A stretch of DNA of 64,000 nucleotides from an uncultured Alphaproteobacteria bacterium (GCA_902612825.1 CACMET010000002.1:3542-67541); one strand, 5' to 3'. Numbered from the stretch's first letter, positions 37,117 through 63,725 are shown. Numbers and translations are program-made. The notes: generated from the sequence alone by a model not told the origin.

Positions 37117-37165
37117 AGAGTAAATTTATAACATTAATTTTTTAATTGATACAAAGAAATTAAAA

Positions 37166-39216: not shown

Positions 39217-39223
39217 AAATGGA

Positions 39224-40222: not shown

Positions 40223-40255
40223 TTACTTTTATTGAATAATTAATATTATTAATTC

Positions 40256-41626: not shown

Positions 41627-41632
41627 ATAACT

Positions 41633-42688
41633 TTATATTTTTTGTAGTTTTTTTGTTTTTAAAGATTTGTACATTCCTTCTAATACTTTAATTGTCTTTA
41701 ATCCAATTTCACCATTTGAATGATTTTTTACATTTTTTCCAAGACAAATATCAATAAAAGTATTCAGTGCATCTTTAGTACCATAACTATAAGCACCATC
41801 TCCTTTACGTATTTTCTCTTCGATTATATCGCCATTATTTAAACGGACCAATAATCGTTCTCTGTTAATTTCCATGTCTAAATACAATACTCCTTTTGTA
41901 CCATGAACTGTTATATAGAAAGTTCCACCAAAATCTTTTGGAACAAACGCACTTCCTGAGAATGCACCAGTGGCACCATTTGAAAATTTCATTGATATAG
42001 CGTTTGTATAATCGACATCAGTTGGTGAAGGGACTGAGAGACAAAAAATTTCTTTAGGATCAAGATTAGTAATTTTAAATATACCTGCAAACATATGTGA
42101 CAGTTGTCCCCACCCATAACCTCCAGCTTTATTTGGGTCAGACCAAGTTGATGCATGTGGTTGAAAAGTATGCATATTTGATTCACTAAGTGGTATGCCC
42201 TGAAATAAATCTGTAAGAGATGAAGTAAAAGCTGCATCAACATGTTTGATTTCGCCAATTGTATTAGTTAATATAATTTCTTCTGCTTTTGACATAAAAT
42301 TTTTAAAGTTAAATCCATTGGGTATTAAAATTTGTTTATTAATTTTTTTAGCTAAACGTATTAATTGTTGAGCATCTTTTACATTTGTAGTCATAGGTTT
42401 TTCAATCATTACATGACAATTTTTTTCTAGTGATGCTTTTGCGTTTTCATAATGAGCATAATGAGGAGAGGAAATTATAACACCATCTAAATTTGAAAAA
42501 TTTAACATTTCTCTGAAATTTGTAGAAGCATACTCAAATCCAAATTTATCTTTAACAAATTTCAACTGATCTTTTTCAAGTTTACAAACGCTTGTTAATT
42601 CAACTTCAGTTCGTTCTTTTAAATGAGGTATGTGGTTTTCTGTAGCCCACCAACCTGCACCAATGACACCTATTTTAATTTTTTGCAT
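41633..42688 (-). CDS. Gfo/Idh/MocA-family NAD(P)-dependent sugar/inositol dehydrogenase
   Basis: 351 aa. IKIGVIGAGWWA Rossmann N-terminus and EKP motif (MIEKPM). Confidence 0.8.
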   Translation of the reverse strand: MQKIKIGVIGAGWWATENHIPHLKERTEVELTSVCKLEKDQLKFVKDKFGFEYASTNFREMLNFSNLDGVIISSPHYAHYENAKASLEKNCHVMIEKPMTTNVKDAQQLIRLAKKINKQILIPNGFNFKNFMSKAEEIILTNTIGEIKHVDAAFTSSLTDLFQGIPLSESNMHTFQPHASTWSDPNKAGGYGWGQLSHMFAGIFKITNLDPKEIFCLSVPSPTDVDYTNAISMKFSNGATGAFSGSAFVPKDFGGTFYITVHGTKGVLYLDMEINRERLLVRLNNGDIIEEKIRKGDGAYSYGTKDALNTFIDICLGKNVKNHSNGEIGLKTIKVLEGMYKSLKTKKLQKI

Positions 42689-42762
42689 TTTTTTACTCTA
42701 TTACAATAATTTACAAATGTCATTAAGCAGGATATTTATCTATTTATTAAATATTAAAGTAA

Positions 42763-43731
42763 ATGAAAAATAAAAGAAATATTGCAATTCTGATGGGTGA
42801 TCCATCTGGTATTGGTCCTGAGTTAATTTGTAAAATTCTAAATTATAATTTTTTAAAAAAAATAAATATAATAATTATTGGAGAAAAATATATATTTGAC
42901 AAATATTTGAAGAAACAAAAAAATATTAAATCAATTAATAATTTTGATCATATAGAATTTAAAAGTACTAATAAGATTTTCTTTGATATTACCAAAAGAA
43001 AAGTAAGATATCCAATTGGAAAAGCAAATATAAAATCAGGAATTTCTGTTTTAAAATCTATCGGTATAGCAGTTGATTTATATAATAAGAGAAAAATAGA
43101 TGGAATTAATTTTGCTCCATTTAATAAAACTAGTTTAGATCTTGCAGGTATGAAATTTAAAGATGAGCTTCATTATTTTAAAAATAAATTTAAAATAAAG
43201 AGCTATGTTTGTGAACTTAATGTGTTGAATAATTTTTGGACTGCTAGAGTAACATCTCACATTCCTCTTAAAGATGTTGCAAAAAATATAACTATTAAAA
43301 ATATTCTTGAACCAGTTAAATTAGTTAATAAGTATTTAAAAAAGAATGGAATTAAAAATCCAAAAGTAGGTGTTCAAGCTTTAAATCCTCACGCTGAGTT
43401 TGGAAATGAAGAGAAAAAAATAATAATCCCTGCAATAAGAAAAGCAAGAAAAATGAAAATTAAAACTTATGGACCATTACCATGTGATACATCATTTATT
43501 AGAGCCTATAAAAATAAAGAGTTTAATTGTCTTGTCGGCATGTATCATGATGCCATACAATCAGGTCTTAAATCTTTTGGGTTTGAAAAAGGAGTTACTG
43601 TTCAAGGAGGTCTGCCAATACCCATTACCACTCCTGCTCATGGAACAGCATTTGATATTGTGGGTAAAAATCAAGCTAACGTAAGTCCAATGTTAGAATC
43701 TTTAAAGTTATTAATTAAACTCTTATCTTAA
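42763..43731 (+). CDS. PdxA-family NAD-dependent (decarboxylating) dehydrogenase
   Basis: 322 aa. IAILMGDPSGIGPEL, ALNPHA and TPAHGTAFDIVGK motifs. Confidence 0.8.
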   Translation: MKNKRNIAILMGDPSGIGPELICKILNYNFLKKINIIIIGEKYIFDKYLKKQKNIKSINNFDHIEFKSTNKIFFDITKRKVRYPIGKANIKSGISVLKSIGIAVDLYNKRKIDGINFAPFNKTSLDLAGMKFKDELHYFKNKFKIKSYVCELNVLNNFWTARVTSHIPLKDVAKNITIKNILEPVKLVNKYLKKNGIKNPKVGVQALNPHAEFGNEEKKIIIPAIRKARKMKIKTYGPLPCDTSFIRAYKNKEFNCLVGMYHDAIQSGLKSFGFEKGVTVQGGLPIPITTPAHGTAFDIVGKNQANVSPMLESLKLLIKLLS

Positions 43732-43780
43732 AATTAAATAAATCTCTTGAATTAAATTAAATTAATATAATAATAGTCTT

Positions 43781-44965
43781 GTGAGTAAAATTGTAAGTGT
43801 AAAAGCTAAGGTCTATAAATGGACAGGGCCCGTTCAAAAAATTCACGAAAATTTTTGCACAAATGCTGCAGATATTGTTAATCAAGAAAATATTTCAGAT
43901 GATAGATGGACAACATATAAATTTCATAGTTGGTTAGTTGTTGAAGTAGAAACAAGTGATGGTTTTATAGGTTTAGGTAACGCCGCATTATCACCAGAAC
44001 CATGTAAATCAGTTGTAGATACTTATTTAGCACCAGCCATTATCGGTGAAAGTATATGGGATTATGAGCATATATGGCAAAAGATGTACCGACAAACACT
44101 AGCTTGGGGAAGAAAAGGTGTAGGTATGACAGCTATTAGTGCTGTTGATATTGCAATATGGGATGCGCTTGGAAAATCTGCGAAACAACCTGTATTCAAA
44201 TTATTAGGTGGAAAAACTAAATCAAAACTGCCTTGTTATGCAAGTAAGCTTTACAGTCAACCTCTTGATAGTCTTGCAAAAGAAGCTAAAGATTACGTAG
44301 ATCAAGGTTTTAAAGCAATGAAATTAAGACTTGGTTGGGGTCCCACTAATGGTGCTGAAGGTATGCATAAAAATATTGAATTAATCAAAACAGTAAGATC
44401 AATTGTTGGTGATAATGTTGATCTTATGGCTGATGTATATATGGGGTGGACATTTGAATATGCAAAAAGAATGATGAGATTAATTGATAATGAAAATCTT
44501 CGTTGGTTAGAAGAACCAGTTATCGCTGATGATATTGATGGTTATGCAGATCTAAAAGCTTCATGTAGAACTCCTATATCTGGTGGTGAACATGAATATA
44601 CACTTTTTGGTTTTAGACAATTACTAGAAAAAAAAGCAATTGATGTTGTGCAATTTGATACGAATAGAGTTGGTGGAATAACACAGGCGCATAAAATTTC
44701 TGCTTTAGCTGAAGCATTTCAAATACCCGTTATTCCTCACGCTGGACAAGTCCATAATTTTCATATTTCCATGAGTTCAGTCAACGCTCCTATTGTCGAA
44801 TATTTTCCATTCTGGCCAGTAGAAATTGGTAATGAATTATTTTGGTATATTTTTGATGGAGAGCCTCAAGCAAAAAATGGTTTTATTGAATTAGATGAAA
44901 ATAAGCACGGATTAGGAATAGAGTTATCCGAAAAATATTTAAAAAACTTTGAAATTCATCAATAA
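43781..44965 (+). CDS. Enolase-superfamily acid-sugar dehydratase (L-rhamnonate/fuconate dehydratase-like)
   Basis: 394 aa, GTG start. ISAVDIALWD..GK..PV.KLLGG, MADVYMGW, LRWLEEP and SGGEHE metal/catalytic pattern. Confidence 0.75.
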   Translation: MSKIVSVKAKVYKWTGPVQKIHENFCTNAADIVNQENISDDRWTTYKFHSWLVVEVETSDGFIGLGNAALSPEPCKSVVDTYLAPAIIGESIWDYEHIWQKMYRQTLAWGRKGVGMTAISAVDIAIWDALGKSAKQPVFKLLGGKTKSKLPCYASKLYSQPLDSLAKEAKDYVDQGFKAMKLRLGWGPTNGAEGMHKNIELIKTVRSIVGDNVDLMADVYMGWTFEYAKRMMRLIDNENLRWLEEPVIADDIDGYADLKASCRTPISGGEHEYTLFGFRQLLEKKAIDVVQFDTNRVGGITQAHKISALAEAFQIPVIPHAGQVHNFHISMSSVNAPIVEYFPFWPVEIGNELFWYIFDGEPQAKNGFIELDENKHGLGIELSEKYLKNFEIHQ

Positions 44966-44968: not shown

Positions 44969-46702
44969 TTAGTGACTATGTCTTTTGACTTCAGCACCTC
45001 TTTTTCCAATTAGAAAATCTAAATCTGCTCCTTTGTCAGCTTGCATTACATGTTCTACATACATTTTTTGATAACCACCTGTGATTTCTGGAACAACAGG
45101 TGAATAATTTTCCAGACGATTTTTTATTGTTTCATCATCAACTTTTAAATTCATTGTTCCTTGATCAACATCAACTTCTATTTCGTCACCATTTTGAACT
45201 GCTGCTAAAGGGCCTTTAACCGCAGCTTCTGGAGCTGTATGAAGTATTACTGTACCATATGCTGTTCCACTCATTCTAGCATCAGATATGCGAATCATAT
45301 CTCTCACACCTTTCTTAAGTACTTTTTGTGGAAGTCGCATGTTGCCAACTTCAGCCATACCAGGATAACCTTTCGGCCCACAGTTTTTTAAAACTAATAT
45401 TGAATTTTCATCAACGTCTAAATTAGGATCATCAATCTTTTCATGAAACTCTTCTACGCTTTCAAAAACTACAGCTTTTCCAGTATGTTTCATTAATTCT
45501 GGTGATGCAGCTGATGGTTTAATAATTGCACCATTTGGAGCTATATTGCCTCTAAGAATTTTAATTCCTCCATTTTTGGTTAATGGATTTTCAAATTCTT
45601 TTATAACATCATTATTCCAACATTTAGCGTTTAAATTATTCTCAGCTATTGTTTTTCCATTAACAGTCATTGAATTTTCATCTAGTAATTTTTTTTCCAT
45701 TAATCTTTTTATAACTACTGGAACACCACCTGCATAATAAAAATCTTCCATTAAGTATTTTCCAGAAGGTTGAAGATTTACTAATGTTGGAATACCTTCT
45801 CCACATTTATTCCAATCTTCTAATTCTAAATCTATTTCCATTCGGCCTGCAATTGCAGCTAAATGGATAACTGCATTTGTAGATCCCCCTATTGCTCCAT
45901 TGACCTTGATTGCATTTTCAAATGATTTTTTTGTAACAATTTTTGACATAGTTATATCTTCCTTAACCATTTCAACAATTCTTTTCCCAGACATATGAGC
46001 TAAAGCATATCTTCTTGAGTCAACTGCAGGTATCGCAGCATTTCCAGGTAGCGACATCCCTAATGCTTCCACCATTGATCCCATTGTTGAGGCAGTCCCC
46101 ATAGTCATACAATTACCTTTTGATCTACTCATTGAAATTTCTGCATTAATAAAATCTTCTTCTGTAATTACACCAGCATTTAAATCTGCATCAAGTTTCC
46201 AAACACCAGTACCAGAACCTATTGTTTCACCTTGATGATGTCCGTTAAGCATTGGGCCACCTGAAACACCTATTGTAGGAAGATCGACACTTGCAGCTCC
46301 CATCATTAATGAAGGTGTTGTTTTATCACACCCCATTAATAATACGACTCCGTCTATGGGATTACCTCTTATTGCCTCTTCAACATCCATACTTGCTAAA
46401 TTTCTAAACAACATAGCTGTAGGTCTTAAATTGGATTCACTTGCTGAAAAAACAGGGAATTCGAGAGGAAAACCCCCAGCTTCATAAACACCTTTTTTAA
46501 CAGACTCTGCTATCTCTCTGAAATGACCATTACAAGGAGTTAATTCTGACCATGTATTACAAATACCAATTACAGGACGGCCATCAAATAAATGATTTGG
46601 ATGACCTTGATTTCTCATCCAGCCTCTATGAATAAATGTATCTCTTCGATGTGATTTAGAATTATACCAATTAGAAGATCTAAATTTATTTTTTTTATTC
46701 AT
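44969..46702 (-). CDS. IlvD/Edd-family sugar-acid (pentonate/hexonate) dehydratase
   Basis: 577 aa. N-terminus RSSNWYNS...FIHRGWMRNQG...GRPVIGICNTWSELTPCNGH, typical of arabinonate/xylonate dehydratases rather than housekeeping IlvD. GCDKTTP Fe-S motif. Confidence 0.8.
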   Translation of the reverse strand: MNKKNKFRSSNWYNSKSHRRDTFIHRGWMRNQGHPNHLFDGRPVIGICNTWSELTPCNGHFREIAESVKKGVYEAGGFPLEFPVFSASESNLRPTAMLFRNLASMDVEEAIRGNPIDGVVLLMGCDKTTPSLMMGAASVDLPTIGVSGGPMLNGHHQGETIGSGTGVWKLDADLNAGVITEEDFINAEISMSRSKGNCMTMGTASTMGSMVEALGMSLPGNAAIPAVDSRRYALAHMSGKRIVEMVKEDITMSKIVTKKSFENAIKVNGAIGGSTNAVIHLAAIAGRMEIDLELEDWNKCGEGIPTLVNLQPSGKYLMEDFYYAGGVPVVIKRLMEKKLLDENSMTVNGKTIAENNLNAKCWNNDVIKEFENPLTKNGGIKILRGNIAPNGAIIKPSAASPELMKHTGKAVVFESVEEFHEKIDDPNLDVDENSILVLKNCGPKGYPGMAEVGNMRLPQKVLKKGVRDMIRISDARMSGTAYGTVILHTAPEAAVKGPLAAVQNGDEIEVDVDQGTMNLKVDDETIKNRLENYSPVVPEITGGYQKMYVEHVMQADKGADLDFLIGKRGAEVKRHSH

Positions 46703-46734
46703 GTGTGAAAGTTTTAGCTAATTAAAGTAAAAAA

Positions 46735-47610
46735 TCAAATTTTAAATTTATTATCTTCAAGGCCAGGCACATTAACATTTAATGCAAATAGACTGCCATC
46801 ATGTTGATTTTTACCTGAATTTGTAGCACTTGTAATAAATAAAGTTTTAAGATCACTTCCTCCAAATACACAATTTGTTATATTTTCAACAGGTAGCTCA
46901 TAGATTTTATCTATTCTTCCTTTAGGATCAATTCTCACTACACATGATCCACCCCAACGACAATTCCAAATAAAACCATCACTATCAATAGTTGATCCAT
47001 CTGGGGCACCTCTATCAAAATCGAAGAAGTTTTTTTTATCTGACAAACTACCTTCATCTAGGTTAAAATTGTATTCTAGTAATGATCCCTCAGTTGTATC
47101 AGCAAAATAAAATTTCGTGTTATCTGGGCTCCAAACAAATGTGTTAGGTATACCAAGATTTGTTTCAACAATATTTACCTTATTATCAAATAGACAATAT
47201 AAACTACCCGATTTAGCATTTAAAGATTTTGCACTTCCATCTTGATTAAAATTATTTTGCATAGTGCCAAACCAGAGCCTACCCCTAGCATCAGATGCAC
47301 CATCATTAGATCTATTTGTTAAAATATCATCTTCAACATTAATTATTCTTTCGTATTTTTTAGATTGAAAGTTAAATTTATTTACTCCATTATTTGAGAC
47401 TAAAGCAATTTCATTCTTTGAGATTATTGACGTCGCTGTTACAAAATCAGGTAAATCAAAAGTTTCTAATTTTTCGTTATCTAAATTAATTCTGAATAAA
47501 ACTGATTTTGGTTTAATATCTACCCAGTGTAAAGTTTGGTCAATTGAAGACCACGTGATACCTTCTCCCAAACTATTTTTTACATCTTTATATAATTCGA
47601 CCTTACTCAT
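46735..47610 (-). CDS. SMP-30/gluconolactonase/LRE-like sugar lactonase
   Basis: 291 aa. LGEGITW, NDGASDARGRLWFGTM and PDGSTIDSDGFIW six-blade pattern. Confidence 0.8.
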   Translation of the reverse strand: MSKVELYKDVKNSLGEGITWSSIDQTLHWVDIKPKSVLFRINLDNEKLETFDLPDFVTATSIISKNEIALVSNNGVNKFNFQSKKYERIINVEDDILTNRSNDGASDARGRLWFGTMQNNFNQDGSAKSLNAKSGSLYCLFDNKVNIVETNLGIPNTFVWSPDNTKFYFADTTEGSLLEYNFNLDEGSLSDKKNFFDFDRGAPDGSTIDSDGFIWNCRWGGSCVVRIDPKGRIDKIYELPVENITNCVFGGSDLKTLFITSATNSGKNQHDGSLFALNVNVPGLEDNKFKI

Positions 47611-47654
47611 ATTTTAGATCAATATAACAAAATTTAAAATTTATGAAGATAAGT

Positions 47655-48659
47655 TTAGAGGTAATGGGCTTTATCTTTAATGCGAGCCATTACTTCTTTT
47701 GTTGCTTCTTCAGAACCGTCATGGAATGTACCCATTAGTTTATCTAAGAAACTAGTATTTCCACCTGAATAATTGCATTCAAAATATTTATGGTGAATGT
47801 AATGCATATAATCACCTGTTGGAATTGATACACCATTTTTGAAAGTCATTTTCTCATATCCTGTATGTCCAGGTGTAGGTGCTAAACCGGCATGAAATAC
47901 ATGATACATCGCAACAAGAGGATGGGAAGGTATAATCCAATGAACTAAGATTCCTGAAAAATAGAGTATATGTTCTATTGGATGCATAGACATACCAGAC
48001 CAAGCACCTGTATTCGTATTACGGTGGTGAACTTTATGAGCAATTTTATAAAGTGGTGCCCAGTGCAATAGTCTATGAGTTAAATAAAAATGTGCGTCTC
48101 TTATAAACGGAACAAGAAAGAACATAAAACAACAATATATCGGATAAGCCTCCCAGCTTACATATGGGATTATTTGATTTGCAAATGCCCAAAATGTAAT
48201 TACTTCATAAGCTGTCCATAATGGAATAGCACTACAAAAAGTATAGAATAGGTTGTCTTTAGTCTGGTCTTTAAATAAAAATGTTGAGTTATTTTTTTCC
48301 AAAGGTCGTGGATTATATTTAAATGAAGTTCCTTGTGTCTGCAGTCTTAAATGAAAGAAGCCTGTCCAAAGTAAAATAATAACTGCATTTCTGAAAAATA
48401 TATAGGATATCCATCCTATTTCAAAAGTCTTCATTGTCTCTAAAGAAGGAGTCAAAAAAAGATATGTAGCAACAGTTATTGCTGCGAAAACAAAAGTCCA
48501 TGGAAAAAAAATTCCAGGAAATTTAAAAAAATACTTTAAAAATTTTATCGGGTTAAAAAATATATCTTTAGGTGGGTTAATACTTATTGTGCCAAAAGGT
48601 TTCCAATGGCCTCTTTTATCTCTTGTACCAAAATCATTATCATTTAGTTGATTTCCCAT
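47655..48659 (-). CDS. Fatty-acid-hydroxylase/sterol-desaturase-family membrane di-iron oxygenase
   Basis: 334 aa, multiple TM helices. His boxes HRLLH, HKVHH, HYIHH. Confidence 0.75.
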   Translation of the reverse strand: MGNQLNDNDFGTRDKRGHWKPFGTISINPPKDIFFNPIKFLKYFFKFPGIFFPWTFVFAAITVATYLFLTPSLETMKTFEIGWISYIFFRNAVIILLWTGFFHLRLQTQGTSFKYNPRPLEKNNSTFLFKDQTKDNLFYTFCSAIPLWTAYEVITFWAFANQIIPYVSWEAYPIYCCFMFFLVPFIRDAHFYLTHRLLHWAPLYKIAHKVHHRNTNTGAWSGMSMHPIEHILYFSGILVHWIIPSHPLVAMYHVFHAGLAPTPGHTGYEKMTFKNGVSIPTGDYMHYIHHKYFECNYSGGNTSFLDKLMGTFHDGSEEATKEVMARIKDKAHYL

Positions 48660-48697
48660 GATCCGTTTATAGTATATTTTGAGTAAAAAAAAAGAGA

Positions 48698-49714
48698 CTA
48701 AATTGTCGTATCTGGAACCTTCACATCAATAAAATAATTTTTATCTTTAGATTGCTTAAATATTGCTGGGATTATTGATCTATAAGCAGAAATTATTCCG
48801 TTATGAGGTTCTGGCATTTGATTTTTAACTATTTTGTGAAATTTTTTTAAATTATGGCATGGGATTTTTGGGAAAATGTGGTGCTCAATATGATACTCCA
48901 TGTTTGAATACAAAAAACTAAAAAAAGGATTCATAATAACGGTTCTTGTACTTTTTCTATGATCTTTAATATTATCAGCTAGTCCAGCATGTTGAGTCAT
49001 GCCGCATATCATTAATATAGTATTACCATAAAATGGAGGTAAAATTATCATTATGATTGGTAGCCATGATTGTAACAAAACTGAACATAAAATTACGAGC
49101 AACCAAAAGCTTAAATATAATCTTGAGCTATTAATAATTTTTTTTATCTCCTTTTCAGGTACTGTAACTTTTACAACAGGAGTAATTACCCCAAATGAAT
49201 GTTTAATAATTTCAAAATGTGTAAAATGTCTTATTTTTTGAATATTAATTATTGGACCAAGAGGTAAAAAATTTAAAAGGAATCTTACAGGTTCTGTTGG
49301 TTTTGGGCTATTATTTTCATAATCATACACCTCTTCATGTGTAAATATAGTGTAAGTATGGTGATGAAAATGACTCCACTTCCATCTAACTGCTTCAAAA
49401 CCACCAAGTAAAGAAGTTATATGATAAAAAAATTTATTTAACGCTCTTGTTTTAAAATATGTTTCGTGATTTGTTTCATGTTGAATGCTTATGATCTTAC
49501 AATAGAAAATATTTCCATAAAGCAAAAGAGCAGGTATTGACCATAAAGTACCCCAACTTATAATACAAAGGTATCCACTTAATATTAGAGCAACAATAAA
49601 TATGGATACATCTGTTAAACCTTTTATATCCGATCTCTTAGAAAGCTCCTTTAAAGTTTTCTTATCTATGTTTGGTTTATACCAAGTTTTTAAATCAACT
49701 TCACCCGCAAACAT
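48698..49714 (-). CDS. Membrane FADS-like di-iron oxygenase, MocD-like (paralog B)
   Basis: 338 aa. His boxes HETNH, HFHHH, HIEHH. ~40% identical by eye to 52170..53156. Confidence 0.75.
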   Translation of the reverse strand: MFAGEVDLKTWYKPNIDKKTLKELSKRSDIKGLTDVSIFIVALILSGYLCIISWGTLWSIPALLLYGNIFYCKIISIQHETNHETYFKTRALNKFFYHITSLLGGFEAVRWKWSHFHHHTYTIFTHEEVYDYENNSPKPTEPVRFLLNFLPLGPIINIQKIRHFTHFEIIKHSFGVITPVVKVTVPEKEIKKIINSSRLYLSFWLLVILCSVLLQSWLPIIMIILPPFYGNTILMICGMTQHAGLADNIKDHRKSTRTVIMNPFFSFLYSNMEYHIEHHIFPKIPCHNLKKFHKIVKNQMPEPHNGIISAYRSIIPAIFKQSKDKNYFIDVKVPDTTI

Positions 49715-49717
49715 TAA

Positions 49718-50545
49718 TCAAAATTTTTCTGAAAGCTTTAAAAATTTTTCAAATTCACCTTCATCAATCTTAACTGTGATTTTAGGATCATTAAATTTTT
49801 GGTTTACTGTATCATCGTGAAACTCTTTGAATGCGCTAACTCTTTCAGCTTGTAACTTTGCAAATTCTTTTTTAAAATCTCTATAAATACGTGCATGTCT
49901 TGGAATTTTTCCCTGAGTATACCCGAGTACATCGTTAGCAAATAAATATTGCCCATCACATCCAGAACCACTTCCCATTGAAAGAGTCATGATATCAACT
50001 TTTTTTGTAACTACTTCGGCAACTTTTGGTGGAACTACTTCGAGTTCAACTCCGATAGCCCCCGCTTCTTGTAACTCAAGAGTGTGTTCTAAAATTCTAA
50101 TGGCTTTGTCAGCAGTTTTGCCTTGTGCAACAAATCCTCCAATCCAAGTAGCATTTCCTGGAACTAAGCCAACATGACTGTTAATTGGAACATATTCATC
50201 TCTTAATGCTCTGATCCATTTGTAACTCCAATTACCACCGTAAATTACATCTGCACCAATATCTAAATACTTATGTGATAGTTTCATTGCTTCATACTCA
50301 GAAGCTACTCTTACAGCGCCTCCAGATTGCATAAAGCAAGTTGGTGCAGCCTCTCGAATTCGCTTAAGTTCATCAAAAGAATTATAAATACCAAATTGTG
50401 GAGCATCATGAGAAGTACAAATCATGTCAATACCTGCCTCTTCAGCTGCTGCAGCTTCGTCAGCATTATGTACAAACATAACACTAAGTTGTCTTTTACC
50501 TTTACATTGCAAATAATCGTAGACTGTAAGTTTTTTTCTGCTCAT
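49718..50545 (-). CDS. Divergent PanB-fold (ketopantoate hydroxymethyltransferase-like) protein
   Basis: 275 aa. The C-terminal two thirds align with E. coli PanB (HVGLVPG...GGF.AQGK..., ELEVVP, SMGSGSGCDGQ). The N-terminal PanB motifs (VGDSLGM, ADLPF, VKIEGG) are not recognisable. Confidence 0.7.
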   Translation of the reverse strand: MSRKKLTVYDYLQCKGKRQLSVMFVHNADEAAAAEEAGIDMICTSHDAPQFGIYNSFDELKRIREAAPTCFMQSGGAVRVASEYEAMKLSHKYLDIGADVIYGGNWSYKWIRALRDEYVPINSHVGLVPGNATWIGGFVAQGKTADKAIRILEHTLELQEAGAIGVELEVVPPKVAEVVTKKVDIMTLSMGSGSGCDGQYLFANDVLGYTQGKIPRHARIYRDFKKEFAKLQAERVSAFKEFHDDTVNQKFNDPKITVKIDEGEFEKFLKLSEKF

Positions 50546-50564
50546 AAAATCTCCAAAAAAATAT

Positions 50565-50882
50565 TTAATCTATCTTAATGAAAATTTTGTCATTATCAAC
50601 TTTAACTGGGTATGTTTTTAAATCCTCACACGCTGGAGGGCTTAAGGCTTCTCCTGATTTAATGTTAAAAATTCCCTGGTGCATTGGACATTCAATTTCA
50701 TCATCCATAACCAAACCATCTTCAAGATGCACAGCCTCATGCGTACAAATTCCATCAGTAGCATAAAAACCATCTGTTAACCTATAAACACAAAAAGTTT
50801 TATCTTGATGGTCAAATCTGATAAGATCCTCTTCTTCAATACTGTCTATAGACCCTACTTCAATCCAATTTTCTTCAGACAT
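50565..50882 (-). CDS. Rieske-type [2Fe-2S] ferredoxin
   Basis: ~105 aa from ATG 50882 (the track's TTG 50921 is less likely). CTH-x16-CPMH Rieske ligands. Size and pattern match BphF/MocE-type soluble ferredoxins. Confidence 0.85.
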   Translation of the reverse strand: MSEENWIEVGSIDSIEEEDLIRFDHQDKTFCVYRLTDGFYATDGICTHEAVHLEDGLVMDDEIECPMHQGIFNIKSGEALSPPACEDLKTYPVKVDNDKIFIKID

Positions 50883-50934
50883 AGAGCTTATATAATATCT
50901 ATTTTCTGAAAATAAATACAAAATAATTAAATTA

Positions 50935-52164
50935 TTATTTTTGTATAAGTTTATTTAATTTTTGATTTTGGTCTAAGAGAATTTGTTTATCTATAATGGT
51001 ATTTTTCTCAGTTAATTTAGAAGTGATTCGAATGTCACGCCCAACTTTTCCTACAATTCCTACACCACATGCTCCTCTTATTTTTTTATTTTTTAGAAAA
51101 AAATAAATTACACCATTATTAATATCATTACCTCTTTCAATAATTTCATCATAATCATCACAAATACCAGTCAGTTGAAGATTCAAATTAAATTGATCAG
51201 ACCACATCCAGGGAATTGAATTGTATTCTGTTTTTACTCCAGCAATATTTTTTCCAGCACATATTCCATGATTTTGTGCATGTTGATAAGACTCTAGTCG
51301 CATATTTCTTTCATAAAATGGATGATAAAAATTACATACATCACCTGCTGCATAAACATCTTTGATAGAGGTTTCACAAAATTGATTTGTTACGATGCCA
51401 TTATCAAGTTTTAAATTTGTGTTTTCAAATAACTTTACTGACGGAGTTGATCCTATACCCGCAATTATAAAATCTGTTTGTATTAATGAATTATCACTAA
51501 GTAAGATTTCATAAATGCCATTTTTTTTGGTTATTTTATCTATCTGTTTATTTAATATTATTTTATTTCCATTTTCTAAATGAGTTTTTTGAACTAGATC
51601 AGCAATTTGTTTGGGTATAATTCTTCCCATAAGTTGATTACCGATTTCTATAACAGTTACTTTCTTTTGAAGCTGAGATAAAGATGAAGCAATTTCTAAG
51701 CCAATGAAACCGCCGCCAATAATAGTTATTTTATTTTTATCTGAAACTTTTTCCTTAATTATTTTGGCTTCTTCTAAATTTCTTAGATAATAAACATCAT
51801 CGTTTAAATTATTATTTAGGCTAAGTCTTTTATTATCGGAACCTGTAGAAATCAGTAAAGTATCATAAGTGTAAACATCTTCATTTTTTGAGAAAAGTTT
51901 TTTATGTTCAAAGTCAACTTTATTAATTAATATATTTTCAAAATCTATATTTTCATTTTTTAGTATGTCGCTAGAATGAAAATAAAGATCTTCTTCATTT
52001 TTTTTATCTAACAAAAAATCTTTAGATAATGGAGGCCTTTCGTATGGTAATAAATTTTCTTCACCTAATATTTTAATATTTGATTCTGTATCATTTTGTC
52101 TAATCTCTCTAGCAGCATAGATTCCAGCTTGACCACCGCCTAAAATTATAATGTTATTTTTCAC
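50935..52164 (-). CDS. FAD-dependent NAD(P)H:ferredoxin reductase (pyridine nucleotide-disulfide oxidoreductase family)
   Basis: 409 aa. ILGGGQAG FAD motif, IIGGGFIGLE NAD motif and AAGDV motif. BphG/MocF/CamA-like. Confidence 0.85.
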   Translation of the reverse strand: MKNNIIILGGGQAGIYAAREIRQNDTESNIKILGEENLLPYERPPLSKDFLLDKKNEEDLYFHSSDILKNENIDFENILINKVDFEHKKLFSKNEDVYTYDTLLISTGSDNKRLSLNNNLNDDVYYLRNLEEAKIIKEKVSDKNKITIIGGGFIGLEIASSLSQLQKKVTVIEIGNQLMGRIIPKQIADLVQKTHLENGNKIILNKQIDKITKKNGIYEILLSDNSLIQTDFIIAGIGSTPSVKLFENTNLKLDNGIVTNQFCETSIKDVYAAGDVCNFYHPFYERNMRLESYQHAQNHGICAGKNIAGVKTEYNSIPWMWSDQFNLNLQLTGICDDYDEIIERGNDINNGVIYFFLKNKKIRGACGVGIVGKVGRDIRITSKLTEKNTIIDKQILLDQNQKLNKLIQK

Positions 52165-52169
52165 TTAGC

Positions 52170-53156
52170 TTAAGCGTTACTTGGAACAGATAATGGAATT
52201 TGATAGTCTGGATTTTTTGCTTGTTTTATAAGTGCTGGAACAATTTCTTTATAGGCGCCTACAAGACCTTTTCTAGCAGGCGGTAATTGATCTTTAATCA
52301 TAGCATGTAGTTTAGGTAAATTATGCGAGGGAACTTGAGGGAACATATGGTGCTCAACATGATATTCCATATGCCAATATAAAAAACTTAATACTGGATT
52401 TAAATATACTGTTCTGGTTGTATACCTGTGATCTCTTTTATCTTCTCTAAGTCCGGCGTGCTGAGTAAGACCCATTAGCATAACAAGCGTCTTTCCATAA
52501 AAATTAGGTAATAAAACATATAGAACTGGAAGCCAGCTTTGAAAGTATACTGAAGAAGCAATACTTATGATCCAAATAGAGAGATGACTCCAAGCGGATA
52601 ATCTACATTTCCATCTTTCATTTTCCGGAATACAAACTTTCATTACATCTGTTGTCACACCAAACGCATGTTTTATAGTTTCCCATTGAAGAGAATTTTT
52701 AAAAAAAACAAAACCAGAGAATGGAATGTAGTGAGAGAAAAACACAATTAAATCAGTTGGTTTTTTTACATGTATTTCAAAATCCACAGGATCATTGAAT
52801 TGGGTATAAGTATGATGATGATAATGAGAATATCTCCATCTTATAGGCTCGAAATTATCCATGAAACTTGCAATGTAATAAAAGAAATCATTCCAGAATT
52901 TAGATTTAAAAGCTGTTCTGTGACCAGTTTCATGCCAAATAGCATCACTACATCCCCAAATATTTCCGTATATTAGAAAAAATAATAAAGACCACCAAGT
53001 GCCCCATGTGACATATGCAAGATACCCAAAAAGAAATAGAGATGAAAAATAAATAATCATATGCTTAAAACCCTGCCAATCAGATTTCTTGCATAACTTC
53101 TTAAATACTTTTTTATCTATATTTGCTCGATACCATTTACCTAAATCTACTTCCAT
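52170..53156 (-). CDS. Membrane FADS-like di-iron oxygenase, MocD-like (paralog A)
   Basis: 328 aa. His boxes HETGH, HYHHH, HVEHH. First gene of the operon. Confidence 0.75.
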   Translation of the reverse strand: MEVDLGKWYRANIDKKVFKKLCKKSDWQGFKHMIIYFSSLFLFGYLAYVTWGTWWSLLFFLIYGNIWGCSDAIWHETGHRTAFKSKFWNDFFYYIASFMDNFEPIRWRYSHYHHHTYTQFNDPVDFEIHVKKPTDLIVFFSHYIPFSGFVFFKNSLQWETIKHAFGVTTDVMKVCIPENERWKCRLSAWSHLSIWIISIASSVYFQSWLPVLYVLLPNFYGKTLVMLMGLTQHAGLREDKRDHRYTTRTVYLNPVLSFLYWHMEYHVEHHMFPQVPSHNLPKLHAMIKDQLPPARKGLVGAYKEIVPALIKQAKNPDYQIPLSVPSNA

Positions 53157-53291
53157 AATTAAAAAATAACACTTTTTAATAACCTTATAAATATAAAAAT
53201 TGCTATAAATTAGTAATTAAGTGCGACTATTTTATCTAGCTAACGTAACTCGAATTTAATTTGTAATAAATCCTTTAATACTTTAATTTAA

Positions 53292-53319
53292 TTGTAATAT
53301 TGATTTATTTACTTATAAA
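53292..53319 (+). promoter_or_regulatory. Possible sigma70-type promoter of the ABC importer operon
   Basis: TTGTAA-16 nt-TATAAA, ~28 nt upstream of the ATG. Such matches are frequent in AT-rich DNA. Confidence 0.25.
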
Positions 53320-53346
53320 TTGAGTCATAAATTATTTGGAGGAATT

Positions 53347-54327
53347 ATGAAAAAAATCTTTGCAATCATTGCTCTATTTTTTGCTTTTGCATCTACTTCA
53401 GCAGTAGCAAAAAATGATTATAGCTGTGATAAGAAATTTATATTTTTCCCAGGCGGACCTGAAGGTGGTCCATTTGGAACTATTGTTTATAATGGTGCAG
53501 TAGCTGCTGCTGAACATACTGGTTGTGACGTAGACTATTACTGGTCACAATGGAATTCAGAAATCATGATTAAACAATTCAAAGAAGCTGTTGCTTTACA
53601 GCCTGATGGAATTGCAATCTATGGTTTCCCAGGTGATGCTGCAATGAGACCAATCATTCAAGAAGCTAGAGAAATGGGAATAGTTATTACTACTATGAAC
53701 ACACCTCTTCCTGACCTTGAGTCAGAATATAAAACTGAAGGATTTGGTTATGCAGGTGCAGATTTATTTGATGCTGGATTTAATCTAGGTAAAAAAGCTG
53801 TTGAAGTTTGTGGTCTACAAGCTGGAGATAAAGCTTTTATCTGGGGTCTTGCAAGTATGCCAAATAGAGGAGAAAGAACTAAAGGCGCAATAGCTGGTGT
53901 TGAAGCTGCAGGTGTTGAAGTTGTTTATCAAGAAATTCCTGATAACGTTAACTCAGATGCATCACAGGGAACTCCTATGTACGTAGCTACTTACAGTGCA
54001 AATCCTGATATCAAATTAGCAATTACTGATCATGGTGGGTTAACTGCAAGTTTACCAACATATATGAAAGCTGCAGGTCACGGTACTGAAGAAGTATGTG
54101 GTGCTGGATTTGATTTATCAGCTCCTATTGTTGATGGAATTAATTCTGGTTACATTGATGTTGTAATTGATCAACAACCATTTATCCAAGGGTATATGCC
54201 AATTGTTCAGTTATTCCTAAGTACAAAATATGGAATGGCTGGATTAGCTATGGATACTGGTGCTGCATTTGTTACAGCTGATAACGTAGATGCTGTTGCT
54301 CCATTGGCAGCAGTACAAATTAGATAA
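53347..54327 (+). CDS. Sugar/cyclitol-type periplasmic binding protein (RbsB/MocB-like) of ABC importer
   Basis: Track start is TTG 53320. ATG 53347 is preferred because it is preceded by GGAGG. Has a signal peptide (ALFFAFASTSAVA) and type-I PBP pattern. Confidence 0.85.
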   Translation: MKKIFAIIALFFAFASTSAVAKNDYSCDKKFIFFPGGPEGGPFGTIVYNGAVAAAEHTGCDVDYYWSQWNSEIMIKQFKEAVALQPDGIAIYGFPGDAAMRPIIQEAREMGIVITTMNTPLPDLESEYKTEGFGYAGADLFDAGFNLGKKAVEVCGLQAGDKAFIWGLASMPNRGERTKGAIAGVEAAGVEVVYQEIPDNVNSDASQGTPMYVATYSANPDIKLAITDHGGLTASLPTYMKAAGHGTEEVCGAGFDLSAPIVDGINSGYIDVVIDQQPFIQGYMPIVQLFLSTKYGMAGLAMDTGAAFVTADNVDAVAPLAAVQIR

Positions 54328-54339
54328 ATTAAATATTAT

Positions 54340-54374
54340 AACCTGCCTTACTTTATAAGGCAGGTTTATTTTTT
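54340..54374 (+). terminator. Intercistronic terminator/attenuator hairpin between the binding-protein and ATPase genes
   Basis: 11-bp stem AACCTGCCTTA / TAAGGCAGGTT, 5-nt loop, then TATTTTTT running directly into the ATPase ATG. Confidence 0.6.
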
Positions 54375-55142
54375 ATGGCTGAAGAACTTTTAAAATTACA
54401 AAATATTTATAAAAACTTTGGAAACGTAAAAGTTTTAAAAGATGTAAATATCAAAATAAATAAAGGCGAAGTAGTAGCTTTAATTGGTGATAATGGTGCT
54501 GGTAAATCAACACTTATAAAAGTTATAACTGGAGTTCATAGTCCAAACTCAGGAAAAGTATTTTTTAAAGAAGAAGAAGTACAAATTAAATCAGTTGCTC
54601 AATCAAGAAAAATGGGGATTGAAGCTGTATATCAAGAAAGAGCACTTTGTGATCAACAAGAATTGTTTAGAAATATTTTTGCAGGAAGAGAAATTACAAA
54701 CTCTTTTGGTTTTTTAGATATCAAAAAACAAAGAAAAGAAGCAGAAAAAATTTTACGGGATTATATAGGATTTACCTCTAAAGCTATAACTGTTGACTCT
54801 CCAGTAATGGGTCTATCGGGCGGAGAAAAACAAGGTGTTGCTTTTGGAAGATCCTTATACTTTAATTCTGATTTGATTGTGTTAGACGAACCTACTATGG
54901 GTTTATCAATTCAAGAAACAGAAAAAGTGCTTAACTTTGTAAAGGGTTTAAAAAATGAAAATAAATCAGCTATTTTTATCGATCATAATATAATACACGT
55001 TTACGGTGCTGCAGATAGATTTATCATTTTAGATAGAGGAGAAGTTGTAGGAGAGTTTAACAAAGAAGATATTTCAAGGGAAGAGCTTGTTCAAAAAATG
55101 ATCCAACTTCATGAATCAGGAAAAATTAAGGTAGAAGATTAA
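54375..55142 (+). CDS. ABC transporter ATP-binding protein (single ABC domain)
   Basis: 255 aa. Walker A GDNGAGKST, signature LSGGEKQG, Walker B LIVLDEPT. Confidence 0.85.
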   Translation: MAEELLKLQNIYKNFGNVKVLKDVNIKINKGEVVALIGDNGAGKSTLIKVITGVHSPNSGKVFFKEEEVQIKSVAQSRKMGIEAVYQERALCDQQELFRNIFAGREITNSFGFLDIKKQRKEAEKILRDYIGFTSKAITVDSPVMGLSGGEKQGVAFGRSLYFNSDLIVLDEPTMGLSIQETEKVLNFVKGLKNENKSAIFIDHNIIHVYGAADRFIILDRGEVVGEFNKEDISREELVQKMIQLHESGKIKVED

Positions 55143-56120
55143 ATGAGTAGTTTATTAAATAGTTATTTTGTAAAAACACACAAACTTGAAATCAGTATTA
55201 CAATAATTGCCATAGTGCTTTTCTTAATTTACTTCTTAGGTGCACCTCATGTATTTACAAGATTTCCAATTTACAGAGCTTTCATGCAATCAATGCCTTT
55301 TTTTGGTATTATTGCTATATCAGCAACGTTTGTCGTTACACTTGGTGAAATTGATTTATCATTTCCATCTATAGTTGGAATTACTTCTCTCATATTTGGA
55401 ATTATAATGACATCAACTGATGGTAATTTTTTTATAGCATTTATATTAGCCACTTCACTTGGAATGTTTGCTGGATTAGTAAATGGCTTACTTGTTACTA
55501 AAATTGGTATACCCTCAATTGTTGCCACTATAGGAACATTATTTTTTTGGCGTGGATTAGTTAATGTAATTTCCCAAGGTAGTGGTATTGCAATCGTCGA
55601 TGTGGCAGATGGAACCTGGCATCATATGATATTTGTTGAAAAATTATTTGGAAAAATTCCAATGCAATTTATTTGGTTCATTGTTTTAACTGGATTAATG
55701 CAATGGGTTTATCGATACCATAAATTTGGAAATCACATTCACTTTGTAGGTGACAATAAGGCCAGTGCTCAAATGATGGGAATTAATGTTGATAATGTAA
55801 AAATTATTGCTTTTGTTCAACTGGGATTTTTCTCTGCTTTAGCAGGAATTTTTACAATGTATGAAATGTTGTATTTCTGGCCTACACAAGGTGAGGGCTT
55901 AATGTTAACAACACTAGCAGCTGTTTTTGTTGGTGGTACTTCAGTCTTTGGTGGTAAAGGTACTATTTTTGGAACTTTTATAGGAGTATTAATTATTGGA
56001 TCATTAGAATCAGGAATAGTTGCTTTAGGCTTATCTGGCTTTTATGTAAAATTTATTAACGGACTCATGATAACAGTAGCCGTAACAGTCTACGCCCTGA
56101 TACAAAGAAGAAAAAATTAA
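55143..56120 (+). CDS. ABC transporter permease (RbsC/BPD_transp_2-like)
   Basis: 325 aa with ~9-10 hydrophobic helices. Start abuts the ATPase stop. Confidence 0.85.
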   Translation: MSSLLNSYFVKTHKLEISITIIAIVLFLIYFLGAPHVFTRFPIYRAFMQSMPFFGIIAISATFVVTLGEIDLSFPSIVGITSLIFGIIMTSTDGNFFIAFILATSLGMFAGLVNGLLVTKIGIPSIVATIGTLFFWRGLVNVISQGSGIAIVDVADGTWHHMIFVEKLFGKIPMQFIWFIVLTGLMQWVYRYHKFGNHIHFVGDNKASAQMMGINVDNVKIIAFVQLGFFSALAGIFTMYEMLYFWPTQGEGLMLTTLAAVFVGGTSVFGGKGTIFGTFIGVLIIGSLESGIVALGLSGFYVKFINGLMITVAVTVYALIQRRKN

Positions 56121-56854
56121 TAAGTAGCTCGACCACCACTCAAATCAAAAGTTGATCCTGTGGTATAAGAATTTTCTTCAGAAGACATCCAAGCAACTAA
56201 AGAAGCTAATTCTTCTACTAACACAAATCTATTTCTTGGAATTTTTGATAACATATAATCAATATGTTCTTGTGTAATTTGATCAAAAATACGCGTCTTA
56301 GCAGGTGCAGGGGTAACACAATTCACTGAAATGTTATTTTCTGCTAATTCTTTTCCTAAAGATTTAGTAAGTGCAATGACTCCAGCTTTTGCTGCACTAT
56401 AAGGCATTGCATTAGGATTACCCTCCTTACCAGCTATCGAGGAAATATTAACGATACGTCCATAATTATTTTTGATAAAATGAGGAACTATAGTTTTACA
56501 GCAATAGAATACTCCAGTTAGATCTATATCTATAACTTTTTGCCATTCCTCAAGTGGATAATCCCATGTATTAAAATTTGGTCCAGCTATTCCTGCATTA
56601 TTTATTAAAATATCAATTTTGTTTTCATATGTAAGACTTTCAGCAAATGCATTCTCTACACTTTTATAATTTGAAACATCAACTTCAATTTTTTGAGTAT
56701 TTTTTAGATCAACTTTATTTAAATATTCTGTGTCTTTATCCCATATTAGTACTCTTGCACCTGACTCTATAAATCTTTTTGTAATTGCTAACCCAAAGCC
56801 TTGTGCTCCACCCGTTACAATTGCTACTCTATTTTCTAAATTAATTTTATTCAT
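56117..56854 (-). CDS. Short-chain dehydrogenase/reductase (FabG-like)
   Basis: 245 aa. TGGAQGFG and YSAAKAG motifs. Confidence 0.8.
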   Translation of the reverse strand: MNKINLENRVAIVTGGAQGFGLAITKRFIESGARVLIWDKDTEYLNKVDLKNTQKIEVDVSNYKSVENAFAESLTYENKIDILINNAGIAGPNFNTWDYPLEEWQKVIDIDLTGVFYCCKTIVPHFIKNNYGRIVNISSIAGKEGNPNAMPYSAAKAGVIALTKSLGKELAENNISVNCVTPAPAKTRIFDQITQEHIDYMLSKIPRNRFVLVEELASLVAWMSSEENSYTTGSTFDLSGGRATY

Positions 56855-61577: not shown

Positions 61578-61618
61578 CATTACTTCATGCGTAGCTATGG
61601 AAATTAATTACTAAGATC

Positions 61619-61672
61619 CGCGTTCCTTCGGGTATACCTACTTCCGATTTGCAAGCTGCAAATTGAACGATT
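61619..61672 (-). promoter_or_regulatory. Glutamine riboswitch aptamer (glnA RNA motif), proximal copy, amtB-1 leader
   Basis: Minus-strand RNA AAUCGUUCA-AUUUGCAGCUUGCAAAU-CGGAAGUAGGUAUACCCGAAGGAACGCGG. It has the conserved CGUUCA ... CGGAAGUAG ... GAAGGAACGC core of the glnA motif. Confidence 0.8.
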
Positions 61673-61686
61673 TTATAACTTTGCAT

Positions 61687-63566: not shown

Positions 63567-63658
63567 TAATCCTCCATTATAAATTTCACAGTACATGGCT
63601 CACACTGAGTCATGTGTTACTTTTCATGCTTAGCTATGGAAATTAATTACTAAGATCC

Positions 63659-63711: not shown

Positions 63712-63725
63712 TTATAACTTTGCAT

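Follow-up and report, generated by a model that had tools for sequence, protein, structure and literature searches.

The rhizobial MocDEF proteins are the sole known genetic precedent for the oxygenase, ferredoxin and reductase trio of the locus described here, an eight-gene operon at 44969-53156 in a 64,000-nucleotide stretch of DNA (hereafter the window) from an uncultured Alphaproteobacteria bacterium (GCA_902612825.1 CACMET010000002.1:3542-67541). Bahar et al. are said to have proposed in 1998 that MocDEF carries out an oxidative O-demethylation of rhizopine (3-O-methyl-scyllo-inosamine). To our knowledge, the only characterised route for the demethylation of methylated sugars in the sea is the P450 system of polysaccharide-degrading Bacteroidota. 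In these marine bacteria a CYP236A P450, a ferredoxin and a reductase convert 6-O-methyl-D-galactose to the sugar and formaldehyde (PMC6292453, PMC9400963, PMC10033563), and this demethylation is coupled to formaldehyde handling (PMC6292453, PMC9400963). The initial annotation of the window named no characterised pathway of the kind encoded here, and we likewise found none in the searchable literature for the module in any organism. The literature returned no functional study of the SMb20818-21 or pRL1106xx genes or of a di-iron sugar O-demethylase. A paper on pinitol reports no bacterial demethylase of this kind (PMC9788770), and recent pangenome papers on SAR11 (Pelagibacterales) mention sugar transport and lactonases in coastal genera, not these oxygenases.

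The locus is real, conserved and abundant, and is a multi-oxygenase, aldonate-linked form of an essentially uncharacterised MocDEF-type system. The window has a G+C content of about 30%, and its nearest relatives are Pelagibacterales single-cell genomes with a protein identity of 95-99%. The eight open reading frames (ORFs) are packed on the minus strand with spacers of 32, 44, 38, 3, 19, 13 and 5 nt (in order of increasing coordinate). In order of transcription they are:

52170-53156, minus strand: FADS1, a MocD-like membrane di-iron oxygenase of the FA_desaturase family (PF00487, 114 bits; His boxes HETGH/HYHHH/HVEHH)
50935-52164, minus strand: MocF-like FAD/NAD(P)H ferredoxin reductase of the HcaD/AndAa type (Pyr_redox_2, 205 bits; Reductase_C, 49 bits)
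50565-50921, minus strand: soluble Rieske [2Fe-2S] ferredoxin of the MocE family (Rieske, 60 bits; CTH-x16-CPMH)
49718-50545, minus strand: PanB-like protein (Pantoate_transf PF02548, 130 bits, profile positions 91-256 only)
48698-49714, minus strand: FADS2, a second MocD-like di-iron oxygenase (PF00487, 118 bits; HETNH/HFHHH/HIEHH)
47655-48659, minus strand: FA_hydroxylase or 'sterol desaturase family' membrane di-iron oxygenase (PF04116, 71 bits; HRLLH/HKVHH/HYIHH)
46735-47610, minus strand: SMP-30/gluconolactonase-family sugar lactonase (SGL PF08450, 239 bits)
44969-46702, minus strand: IlvD/EDD-family aldonic-acid dehydratase, L-arabinonate dehydratase-like (ILVD_EDD_N and C, 373 and 211 bits)

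The packing and domain content first described for these genes are borne out by the ORFs, by the spacers of 3-44 nt and by all eight Pfam domain calls, and the His boxes and Rieske motif quoted at that stage are all present in the translations. A P450 domain was found in none of the cluster or flanking proteins scanned. A scan for terminators inside the operon gave no signal above chance in this AT-rich DNA. The promoter scan of the locus was uninformative for the same base composition, with counts not above chance.

The gene order was compared by tblastn of the window proteins against 80 related Pelagibacterales genome loci. The complete set of eight keeps its order in 39 of these, and the block is also present on metagenome contigs of 0.66-0.8 Mb at about 83% identity. 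The neighbourhood conservation anticipated for the operon is thus found, and the eight-gene order is not a chance arrangement. In the SAR11 loci the importer always divergently adjoins FADS1. An SDR gene (56117-56854) is syntenic in most loci and a peroxiredoxin gene is also a usual neighbour. Past the dehydratase the DNA is hypervariable (window ~39200-44965 against loci L001-L066) though the cluster proteins are 95-99% identical. This flank holds an enolase and a PdxA-like gene, or Ldh_2 and GlcD-like genes, or a DHDPS-type aldolase gene, depending on the genome. The Gfo/Idh/MocA gene at 41633-42688 falls in the variable flank and is outside of the conserved unit.

Several other architectures occur among SAR11. 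In 15 of the 80 loci a second PanB-like paralogue lies between the FADS2 and FA_hydroxylase genes, giving a nine-gene version (L041 at 14925-15755, L002, L007, L030, L038, L040, L042, L046, L048, L049, L051, L052, L060, L066 and L068). Some SAR11, e.g. the cultured 'Candidatus Pelagibacter sp. Uisw_094' (complete genome, L041), have a six-gene oxygenase core without lactonase or dehydratase. A further variant has the order (PanB-like)-FADS-lactonase-SDR-enolase-enolase-DHDPS aldolase-IlvD and no Rieske/reductase pair; in it the FADS gene stands directly ahead of the lactonase-to-IlvD run, which is a complete oxidative route. The super-cluster at L059:5616-19736 encodes two FADS, two FA_hydroxylase, one Rieske, one reductase and one PanB-like protein with two importers, and additionally a PhyH dioxygenase, an E1/transketolase-like pair and a Gfo/Idh/MocA protein. 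Bare FADS/PanB-like pairs are found in other SAR11, and the two reading frames overlap in L073 and L085. Across the five SAR11 architectures the PanB-like gene is the most persistent neighbour of FADS, so the most persistent pairing is that of a FADS-like oxygenase with a PanB-like protein. The PanB-like gene tracks the oxygenase and not the sugar-acid genes. One SAR11 variant adjoins split transketolase and FGGY kinase genes. Bacillus HxlR senses formaldehyde through a Cys residue. A HxlR-family regulator is encoded between the reductase and Rieske genes in L041 (12266-12631, minus strand) and L042. This protein has no Cys at all, and a formaldehyde-sensing role like that of Bacillus HxlR is not indicated for it.

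The module is also present outside of SAR11. On S. meliloti pSymB a LacI gene precedes a FADS gene, a MocE-family ferredoxin gene, a FAD oxidoreductase gene and a gene labelled '3-methyl-2-oxobutanoate hydroxymethyltransferase' (SM_b20817-20 and the adjacent PanB-like gene). The genes SM_b20818-20 carry the names mocD/E/F (PMC11387232). The identical four-gene set occurs on pRL11 of R. johnstonii 3841 and on p42e of R. etli CFN42. In Rhizobium sp. Kim5 a FADS-MocE-PanB-like run leads directly into genes for a CUT2 binding protein, permease and single-domain ATPase, while in Aestuarium FADS-Rieske-PanB-like lies beside an inositol-type binding protein, iolG, iolC, iolD, iolE and iolB. Caballeronia has FADS-Rieske-reductase between an IlvD-type dehydratase, 48% identical to that of the window, and a LacI/importer set. 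The PanB-like gene is no peculiarity of SAR11: in Rhizobiaceae and Rhodobacterales, too, the module repeatedly has it as a fourth member. The core of FADS, FAD reductase, MocE-family Rieske and PanB-like genes is a recurring module, always in sugar or cyclitol contexts.

The FA_hydroxylase-type oxygenase has modules of its own. In Bradyrhizobium and Mesorhizobium the order is AraC, then ribokinase, PanB-like, FA_hydroxylase oxygenase, Rieske, (TIM barrel) and reductase. That this oxygenase has its own Rieske, reductase and PanB-like partners in these genera is a new observation. Comparison of the FADS and FA_hydroxylase modules indicates that two unrelated di-iron oxygenase families use the same soluble partners, in every case in a carbohydrate or cyclitol setting. 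Jiella pelagia has LacI followed by FA_hydroxylase, FADS, MocE, reductase, sugar isomerase and Gfo/Idh/MocA genes, and no PanB-like gene. R. tropici has FA_hydroxylase-Rieske-reductase among ADH, TIM-barrel, DeoC-aldolase, ROK-kinase and binding-protein genes, again with no PanB-like gene. Several oxygenases on one Rieske chain are not unique to the window; Jiella pelagia and another SAR11 lineage (two FADS and two FA_hydroxylase) share this trait. The Bradyrhizobium FA_hydroxylase module (L092:7081-14186) and L094 are flanked by genes for a PfkB-type 'ribokinase', a TIM-barrel protein and a GH88 unsaturated glucuronyl hydrolase. It is pure speculation that such flanks point to a methylated uronic acid, e.g. 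4-O-methyl-glucuronate, as the substrate.

The Rieske protein has a borderline pass against TIGR02377 (MocE_fam_FeS), with 136.7 bits for a cut-off of 136.15, and is 53-59% identical to rhizobial, Aestuarium and Jiella ferredoxins of the MocE family. Its ORF as listed begins at a TTG (50921); the true start is probably the ATG at 50882, giving 105 aa, because the MocE family model aligns only from residue 18. The reductase scores 300 bits against the HcaD model, which is below the cut-off of that model. It shares 30-34% identity with the reductases encoded in the rhizobial modules, and its gene adjoins the Rieske gene.

FADS1 shares 41-44% identity with the FADS proteins of the rhizobial MocE/reductase modules. 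Together with the Rieske protein that passes the MocE model and the FAD reductase alongside, this supports the analogy with MocDEF first drawn from the window. A search of annotated plasmids returned about 290 records with a FADS protein 35-44% identical, followed by a sharp drop, the next being at most 30%. Against annotated omega-3 desaturases the identity of FADS1 is about 22% (E ~5e-4). The curated desaturase models score the FADS proteins of the window at 36.6-38.9 bits (DesB) and 19-25 bits (DesA) for a cut-off of 500. With these scores far below the cut-off and the identity to desaturases low, the FADS proteins do not nest inside the acyl-lipid desaturases, the outcome that the initial annotation had named as fatal to its proposal. 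In the tree the SAR11 FADS proteins form several old paralogue lineages, sister to a rhizobial/Rhodobacterales/Burkholderiales group. FADS2 is an old paralogue of FADS1 (47% identity) and lies in a separate SAR11 paralogue lineage. The AF2 model of FADS1 (pLDDT 91) is mostly helical. No solved structure came close in a fold search with it, in which subunits of the chloroplast FtsHi motor complexes and AlkB matched best. The nearest solved enzyme is AlkB (8F6T) with a TM of 0.46 and 13% identity. The FA_hydroxylase protein scores 71 bits against PF04116 (cut-off 31), and no curated NCBIfam equivalog matched it. Its homologues at 45-53% identity carry the public label 'sterol desaturase family'. 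The curated model of GntB, an arginine hydroxylase of the oxygenase superfamily, gave weak matches.

The PanB-like protein is publicly annotated as '3-methyl-2-oxobutanoate hydroxymethyltransferase', in some records with a pantothenate-biosynthesis GO term. It scores 100.9 bits against TIGR00222 (cut-off 207.55) and 118 bits against PRK00311 (cut-off 272), and its alignment to solved PanB structures begins only at about residue 61-91. In the tree these proteins form a clade apart from the PanB of E. coli and Bradyrhizobium, both of which are encoded beside panC. The PanB-like gene does not adjoin panC, and canonical PanB is absent from the window. In true PanB, D45, D84, K112 and E114 hold the Mg2+ and the enolate of the 2-oxo acid. 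Residues D46 (D45 here), D84, K112, E114, H136 and E181 are strictly conserved and probably catalytic in KPHMT, whose dependence on a divalent metal has been confirmed (PMC13488298). We aligned 11 PanB-like proteins with two true PanBs, using E. coli numbering. D45, D84, K112 and E114 are replaced in all 11, with a Tyr at position 112 in nine of them, while H136 and E181 are kept. The loss of these four residues is a new observation. On this evidence, the PanB-like protein of the window is not a true PanB/KPHMT and the public label is probably a systematic mis-annotation.

A probable homologue from R. etli has been examined in vivo. [quoted passage not shown] The stretch of p42e from 470 to 505 kb has one PanB-like gene (271 aa), which lies within the FADS-MocE-reductase module and whose product shares 94% identity with the pRL11 copy and 43% with the window protein. 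Old locus tags are not displayed for this stretch; we infer that the gene is very probably RHE_PE00443. The second SAR11 paralogue is 46% identical to the first and is likewise without the Mg2+ ligands of PanB. The subfamily is small: of 1.84 billion cluster representatives, 66 belong to it at E<=1e-30. One protein, P0242 (542 residues), is matched in two stretches and is an apparent tandem fusion of two PanB-like domains. The AF2 model of the PanB-like protein is unusable (mean pLDDT 47; shallow alignment of 32 sequences that are 82-95% identical). The protein was also considered as the missing aldolase for the keto-deoxy acid. This was rejected, since it accompanies the oxygenase even where no sugar-acid genes exist, and some SAR11 variants encode it alongside a DHDPS-type aldolase. 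The PanB-like protein is a candidate subunit for handling a one-carbon (C1) unit, either hydroxymethyl or formaldehyde.

The dehydratase passes the subfamily model NF004784 (918 bits, cut-off 539) and falls just below the equivalog model for L-arabinonate dehydratase (840 bits, cut-off 882). Against PDB entries 5J83-85 and 9EVV it scores 830-832 bits; 9EVV is deposited as L-arabinonate dehydratase, and 5J83-85 are presumably the Rhizobium leguminosarum enzyme. The L-arabinonate dehydratase of R. leguminosarum accepts L-arabinonate, D-galactonate and D-fuconate. By these profile and structure matches, the dehydratase of the window is a close relative of L-arabinonate dehydratase, a point that is new here. 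The lactonase is a full-length SGL protein (profile positions 1-246 of 246). Its best solved relative is chain 7PLB (145 bits), deposited as a Smp-30/Cgr1 family protein, which we take to be the Caulobacter xylonolactonase XylC. The operon faces an ATP-binding cassette (ABC) importer, and the features on this side are:

53157-53346: divergent intergenic stretch that separates the importer from the oxygenase operon, presumed to be a shared promoter region
53347-56120, plus strand: CUT2-type sugar ABC importer (Peripla_BP_4, ABC_tran, BPD_transp_2)
53347-54327, plus strand: binding protein of the importer
54375-55142, plus strand: single-domain ATPase of the importer
55143-56120, plus strand: permease of the importer
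56117-56854, minus strand: SDR dehydrogenase that adjoins the importer (adh_short, 178 bits)

The SDR is a candidate sugar 1-dehydrogenase that would make the lactone. The binding protein scores 82.5 bits against the model of rhizopine-binding proteins (cut-off 420). The initial annotation was right that a Gfo/Idh/MocA protein (41633-42688) and a sugar-binding protein (53347-54327) are encoded on the flanks, but the labels 'MocA-type' and 'MocB-type' are over-specific. There is no match to iolG/C/D/E in the window at E<=1e-3; therefore, a rhizopine or inositol substrate is unlikely here. The ATPase is a short single-domain protein of 255 aa, and the curated sugar-importer ATPase models that it matched are about 500 residues long. 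A short single-domain ATPase also accompanies the module in Rhizobium sp. Kim5 (L100:14355-15116).

Taken as a whole, the locus is most likely a catabolic unit for small soluble methylated carbohydrates, probably O-methyl aldoses of arabino/galacto configuration. That the substrates of the oxygenases are soluble carbohydrates or cyclitols brought in by import, and not lipids, is quite probable. We tentatively favor a route, a little short of an even chance, in which O-methyl sugars are imported and lose their methyl groups by oxidation, the C1 unit is dealt with by the PanB-like protein and the sugar passes by way of its lactone and acid to the keto-deoxy acid. The substrate would enter through the divergently transcribed CUT2 transporter. 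Electrons would flow from NAD(P)H through the FAD reductase and the soluble MocE-type Rieske ferredoxin to all three membrane di-iron oxygenases, each of which may hydroxylate a methyl group at a different position or on a different sugar. The resulting O-CH2OH hemiacetal would break down to the free sugar and a C1 unit. The PanB-like protein, having no keto-acid/Mg2+ site, would take over this unit, and the likely acceptor is tetrahydrofolate (THF). A THF-linked pathway of C1 oxidation has been described in SAR11 and would receive the unit. The freed aldose would be converted to the lactone, probably by the neighboring SDR, the SMP-30 lactonase would open the lactone, and the IlvD enzyme would dehydrate the acid to a 2-keto-3-deoxy acid.

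Oxidative demethylation is the simplest reading because the rhizopine precedent is an O-demethylation, the modules lie in sugar or inositol contexts and a PanB-derived protein tracks the oxygenase. The first hypothesis of the initial annotation, that O-demethylation or hydroxylation is followed by non-phosphorylative oxidation, stands as the best supported one, though it is still conjectural. In some loci the second, 46%-identical PanB-like paralogue comes with an extra oxygenase, which suggests that PanB-like proteins recognise the sugar part as well; the substrate of the protein may therefore be the hemiacetal and not free formaldehyde. A bolder version, which we consider somewhat unlikely, is that the PanB-like proteins are a new PanB-derived enzyme class that moves the hydroxymethyl or formaldehyde unit made by the oxygenase directly onto THF, in a four-component 'oxidative methyl-ether:THF' demethylase.

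Several observations weigh against demethylation of an O-methyl sugar. We know of no enzyme of this kind that has been assayed, and, as far as we know, even MocDEF rests on genetics and sequence. The binding protein scores at most 57 bits against any solved binding protein in the PDB and so gives no clue to the ligand, and the window encodes no aldolase or kinase that would obviously act on the keto-deoxy acid. Two specific PanB-like paralogues per cluster fit a generic formaldehyde scavenger poorly. Oxygenase modules in Jiella, R. tropici and Caballeronia have no PanB-like gene, and some SAR11 variants have FADS and PanB-like genes with no Rieske/reductase pair nearby. At L073:7371-16494 (also in L072-L080) a FADS gene, whose product is 64% identical to FADS1, overlaps a PanB-like gene beside amine-type genes; the neighbors encode GBBH/TauD-like, 3-hydroxyacyl-CoA-dehydrogenase, DUF1800/DUF1501, glutamine-synthetase (GlnA)-like and GST proteins. 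At L087:1534-5222 a FADS gene (55% identical) lies beside those for a DAO-family oxidase and an aminotransferase. These amine-type neighborhoods indicate that the substrate class is not uniform across the oxygenase family. They are hints of methylated-amine substrates for some members, which would fit a general theme of methyl-group oxidation.

Of the alternatives, the one that survives best is an oxidation without demethylation (ring hydroxylation or desaturation of a sugar or cyclitol), with the PanB-like protein as a non-catalytic or substrate-presenting subunit; we consider it unlikely. Half of the PanB active site is gone, so the protein could be a pseudo-enzyme, and modules without its gene exist. 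However, PanB-like copies are strongly conserved among SAR11 (82-99% identity), keep H136 and E181 and recur with two unrelated oxygenase families, which argues for a defined chemical role tied to the product of the oxygenase.

It is improbable that the oxygenases convert a C-methyl or 6-deoxy methyl group to hydroxymethyl, which the PanB-like protein would then remove by retro-aldol cleavage as methylene-THF or formaldehyde, in a reversal of the PanB reaction on a ketone derived from the sugar. A reversed PanB reaction does remove a hydroxymethyl group next to a carbonyl, which is established chemistry. The pairing of oxygenase and PanB-like genes is tight, near 1:1 in some loci, and AlkB, the nearest solved enzyme, is a methyl hydroxylase. 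The SAR11 variant beside split transketolase and FGGY kinase genes resembles branched-sugar pathways, such as those for apiose. However, D45, D84, K112 and E114 are missing from all PanB-like proteins examined, and in vivo the R. etli copy lacks PanB activity. These two points weaken the PanB-type retro-aldol that the initial annotation had offered as its second hypothesis. In addition, the rhizobial and Aestuarium modules adjoin inositol genes, and rhizopine, the substrate of the one genetic precedent, is an O-methyl ether.

An N-demethylation of methylated amino sugars, aminocyclitols or other amines, with the formaldehyde handled by the PanB-like protein, is quite improbable for this operon. 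It would fit the FADS/PanB-like pairs near GBBH/TauD-like, 3-hydroxyacyl-CoA-dehydrogenase, glutamine-synthetase-like and GST genes in another SAR11 lineage, and the 55%-identical FADS that adjoins a DAO-family oxidase and an aminotransferase. The weak GntB matches point the same way, since that superfamily accepts small polar nitrogen compounds. In the window, however, the oxygenases are accompanied by a CUT2 sugar importer, a lactonase and an aldonate dehydratase, and the conserved block is without aminotransferase, deaminase or amine genes. Finally, it is highly implausible that the three oxygenases serve membrane remodelling, as desaturases or hydroxylases of lipids, in an incidental neighborhood of sugar genes: Pfam names and public annotations do say 'fatty acid desaturase' and 'sterol desaturase family', but we reject this reading on the DesA/DesB scores of 19-39 bits for a cut-off of 500, on the identity of about 22% to omega-3 desaturases compared to 41-44% to the MocD-like group, and on the persistent co-location, seen in at least eight genera, with regulators of the LacI or AraC type, importers of sugars and enzymes for inositol or aldonates.

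The remainder of the window has other features. The region past the dehydratase (32351-44965) is an island of carbohydrate and organic-acid genes. It encodes a SDR, a Zn-ADH, a mannitol-dehydrogenase-family protein, a FGGY kinase, an EamA exporter and a beta-lactamase-fold protein. It also encodes Ldh_2, a GlcD-like FAD oxidase, Gfo/Idh/MocA, a PdxA-like dehydrogenase and an enolase-superfamily protein (524 bits to PDB 3SSZ). Past the importer, two tandem pairs of glutamine riboswitch aptamers (RF01739) lie on the minus strand at 61617-61739 and 63656-63778 with 54-63 bits each, upstream of the ORFs 60242-61528 and 62280-63596. The ORF 60242-61528 is probably an ammonium transporter, as at the matching position in L097.

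No heterotroph of the surface ocean is more abundant than SAR11, and the semi-labile dissolved organic matter of the sea is known to include methylated sugars. The cluster proteins are very common in ocean metagenomes, where single clusters at 90% identity have up to about 2,000 member sequences. If oxidative demethylation takes place as proposed, the di-iron route would be a testable way for streamlined oligotrophs such as SAR11 to use methylated sugars and gain C1-derived energy. If the four-component version holds, SAR11 arrays of such demethylases would harvest both the C1 energy and the sugar carbon of methylated sugars in marine dissolved organic matter. Two unrelated di-iron oxygenase families that independently recruited the same Rieske, reductase and PanB-like partners make up an unstudied enzyme system. 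The PanB label also has a practical consequence, since it can yield false predictions of pantothenate (vitamin B5) prototrophy in SAR11 and rhizobia.

The locus shares features with several known systems. In common with AlkB-AlkG-AlkT and XylM/XylA it has a membrane di-iron oxygenase with His boxes, a small soluble iron protein and a NAD(P)H reductase. However, AlkB uses a rubredoxin instead of a Rieske protein and hydrophobic substrates, and the TM of 0.46 at 13% identity is low. The CYP236A system is a functional analogue, in that a three-component oxidative demethylation is encoded together with sugar catabolism. It differs in having a soluble haem P450 instead of membrane di-iron enzymes, and in its organisms and polysaccharide-utilisation context. 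A THF-binding domain captures formaldehyde in trimethylamine N-oxide demethylase (PMC13619132); the likeness to that enzyme is conceptual only (demethylation plus C1 capture), with no sequence relationship and a chemistry that is not oxygen-dependent.

The other proteins of the operon can be compared in the same way. The PanB-like protein belongs to the PF02548 family of PanB (EC 2.1.2.11) and has its conserved C-terminal half including H136 and E181; unlike PanB, it is without four catalytic residues, misses the curated cut-offs, falls in a separate clade and has no panC neighbor. The L-arabinonate/D-galactonate-type IlvD dehydratase and the SMP-30 lactonase resemble the non-phosphorylative oxidation of the Weimberg and De Ley-Doudoroff-like pathways. 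In those pathways co-transcription with oxygenases is not described, and the downstream aldolase or dehydrogenase was not found in the window.

MocD/E/F itself has the same FADS-like oxygenase, MocE-family Rieske protein and FAD reductase, and a link to a binding-protein ABC importer. The FADS likeness to MocD rests on the rhizobial proteins annotated mocD (SM_b20818) and their relatives. A rhizopine moc locus was sought by way of an Aestuarium 'rhizopine-binding protein', and only inositol-type binding proteins were returned. Unlike MocDEF, the window has no mocA/B/C/R or iol genes, its binding protein is far below the rhizopine cut-off, and it has three oxygenases instead of one with a lactonase and an aldonate dehydratase downstream. 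The three components are present and the context is not; therefore, the locus should not be filed as a rhizopine system. The rhizobial and Rhodobacterales modules differ from the window in having one oxygenase, a dedicated LacI repressor and inositol or TIM-barrel neighbors in place of the lactonase and IlvD genes. The gene order also differs, with FADS-Rieske-reductase in rhizobia and FADS-reductase-Rieske in the window. These modules nevertheless resemble the window in all four components (41-44% identity for FADS, 53-59% for Rieske, 30-33% for the reductase and 41-46% for the PanB-like protein), and the PanB-like subfamily with its lost catalytic residues is common to both.

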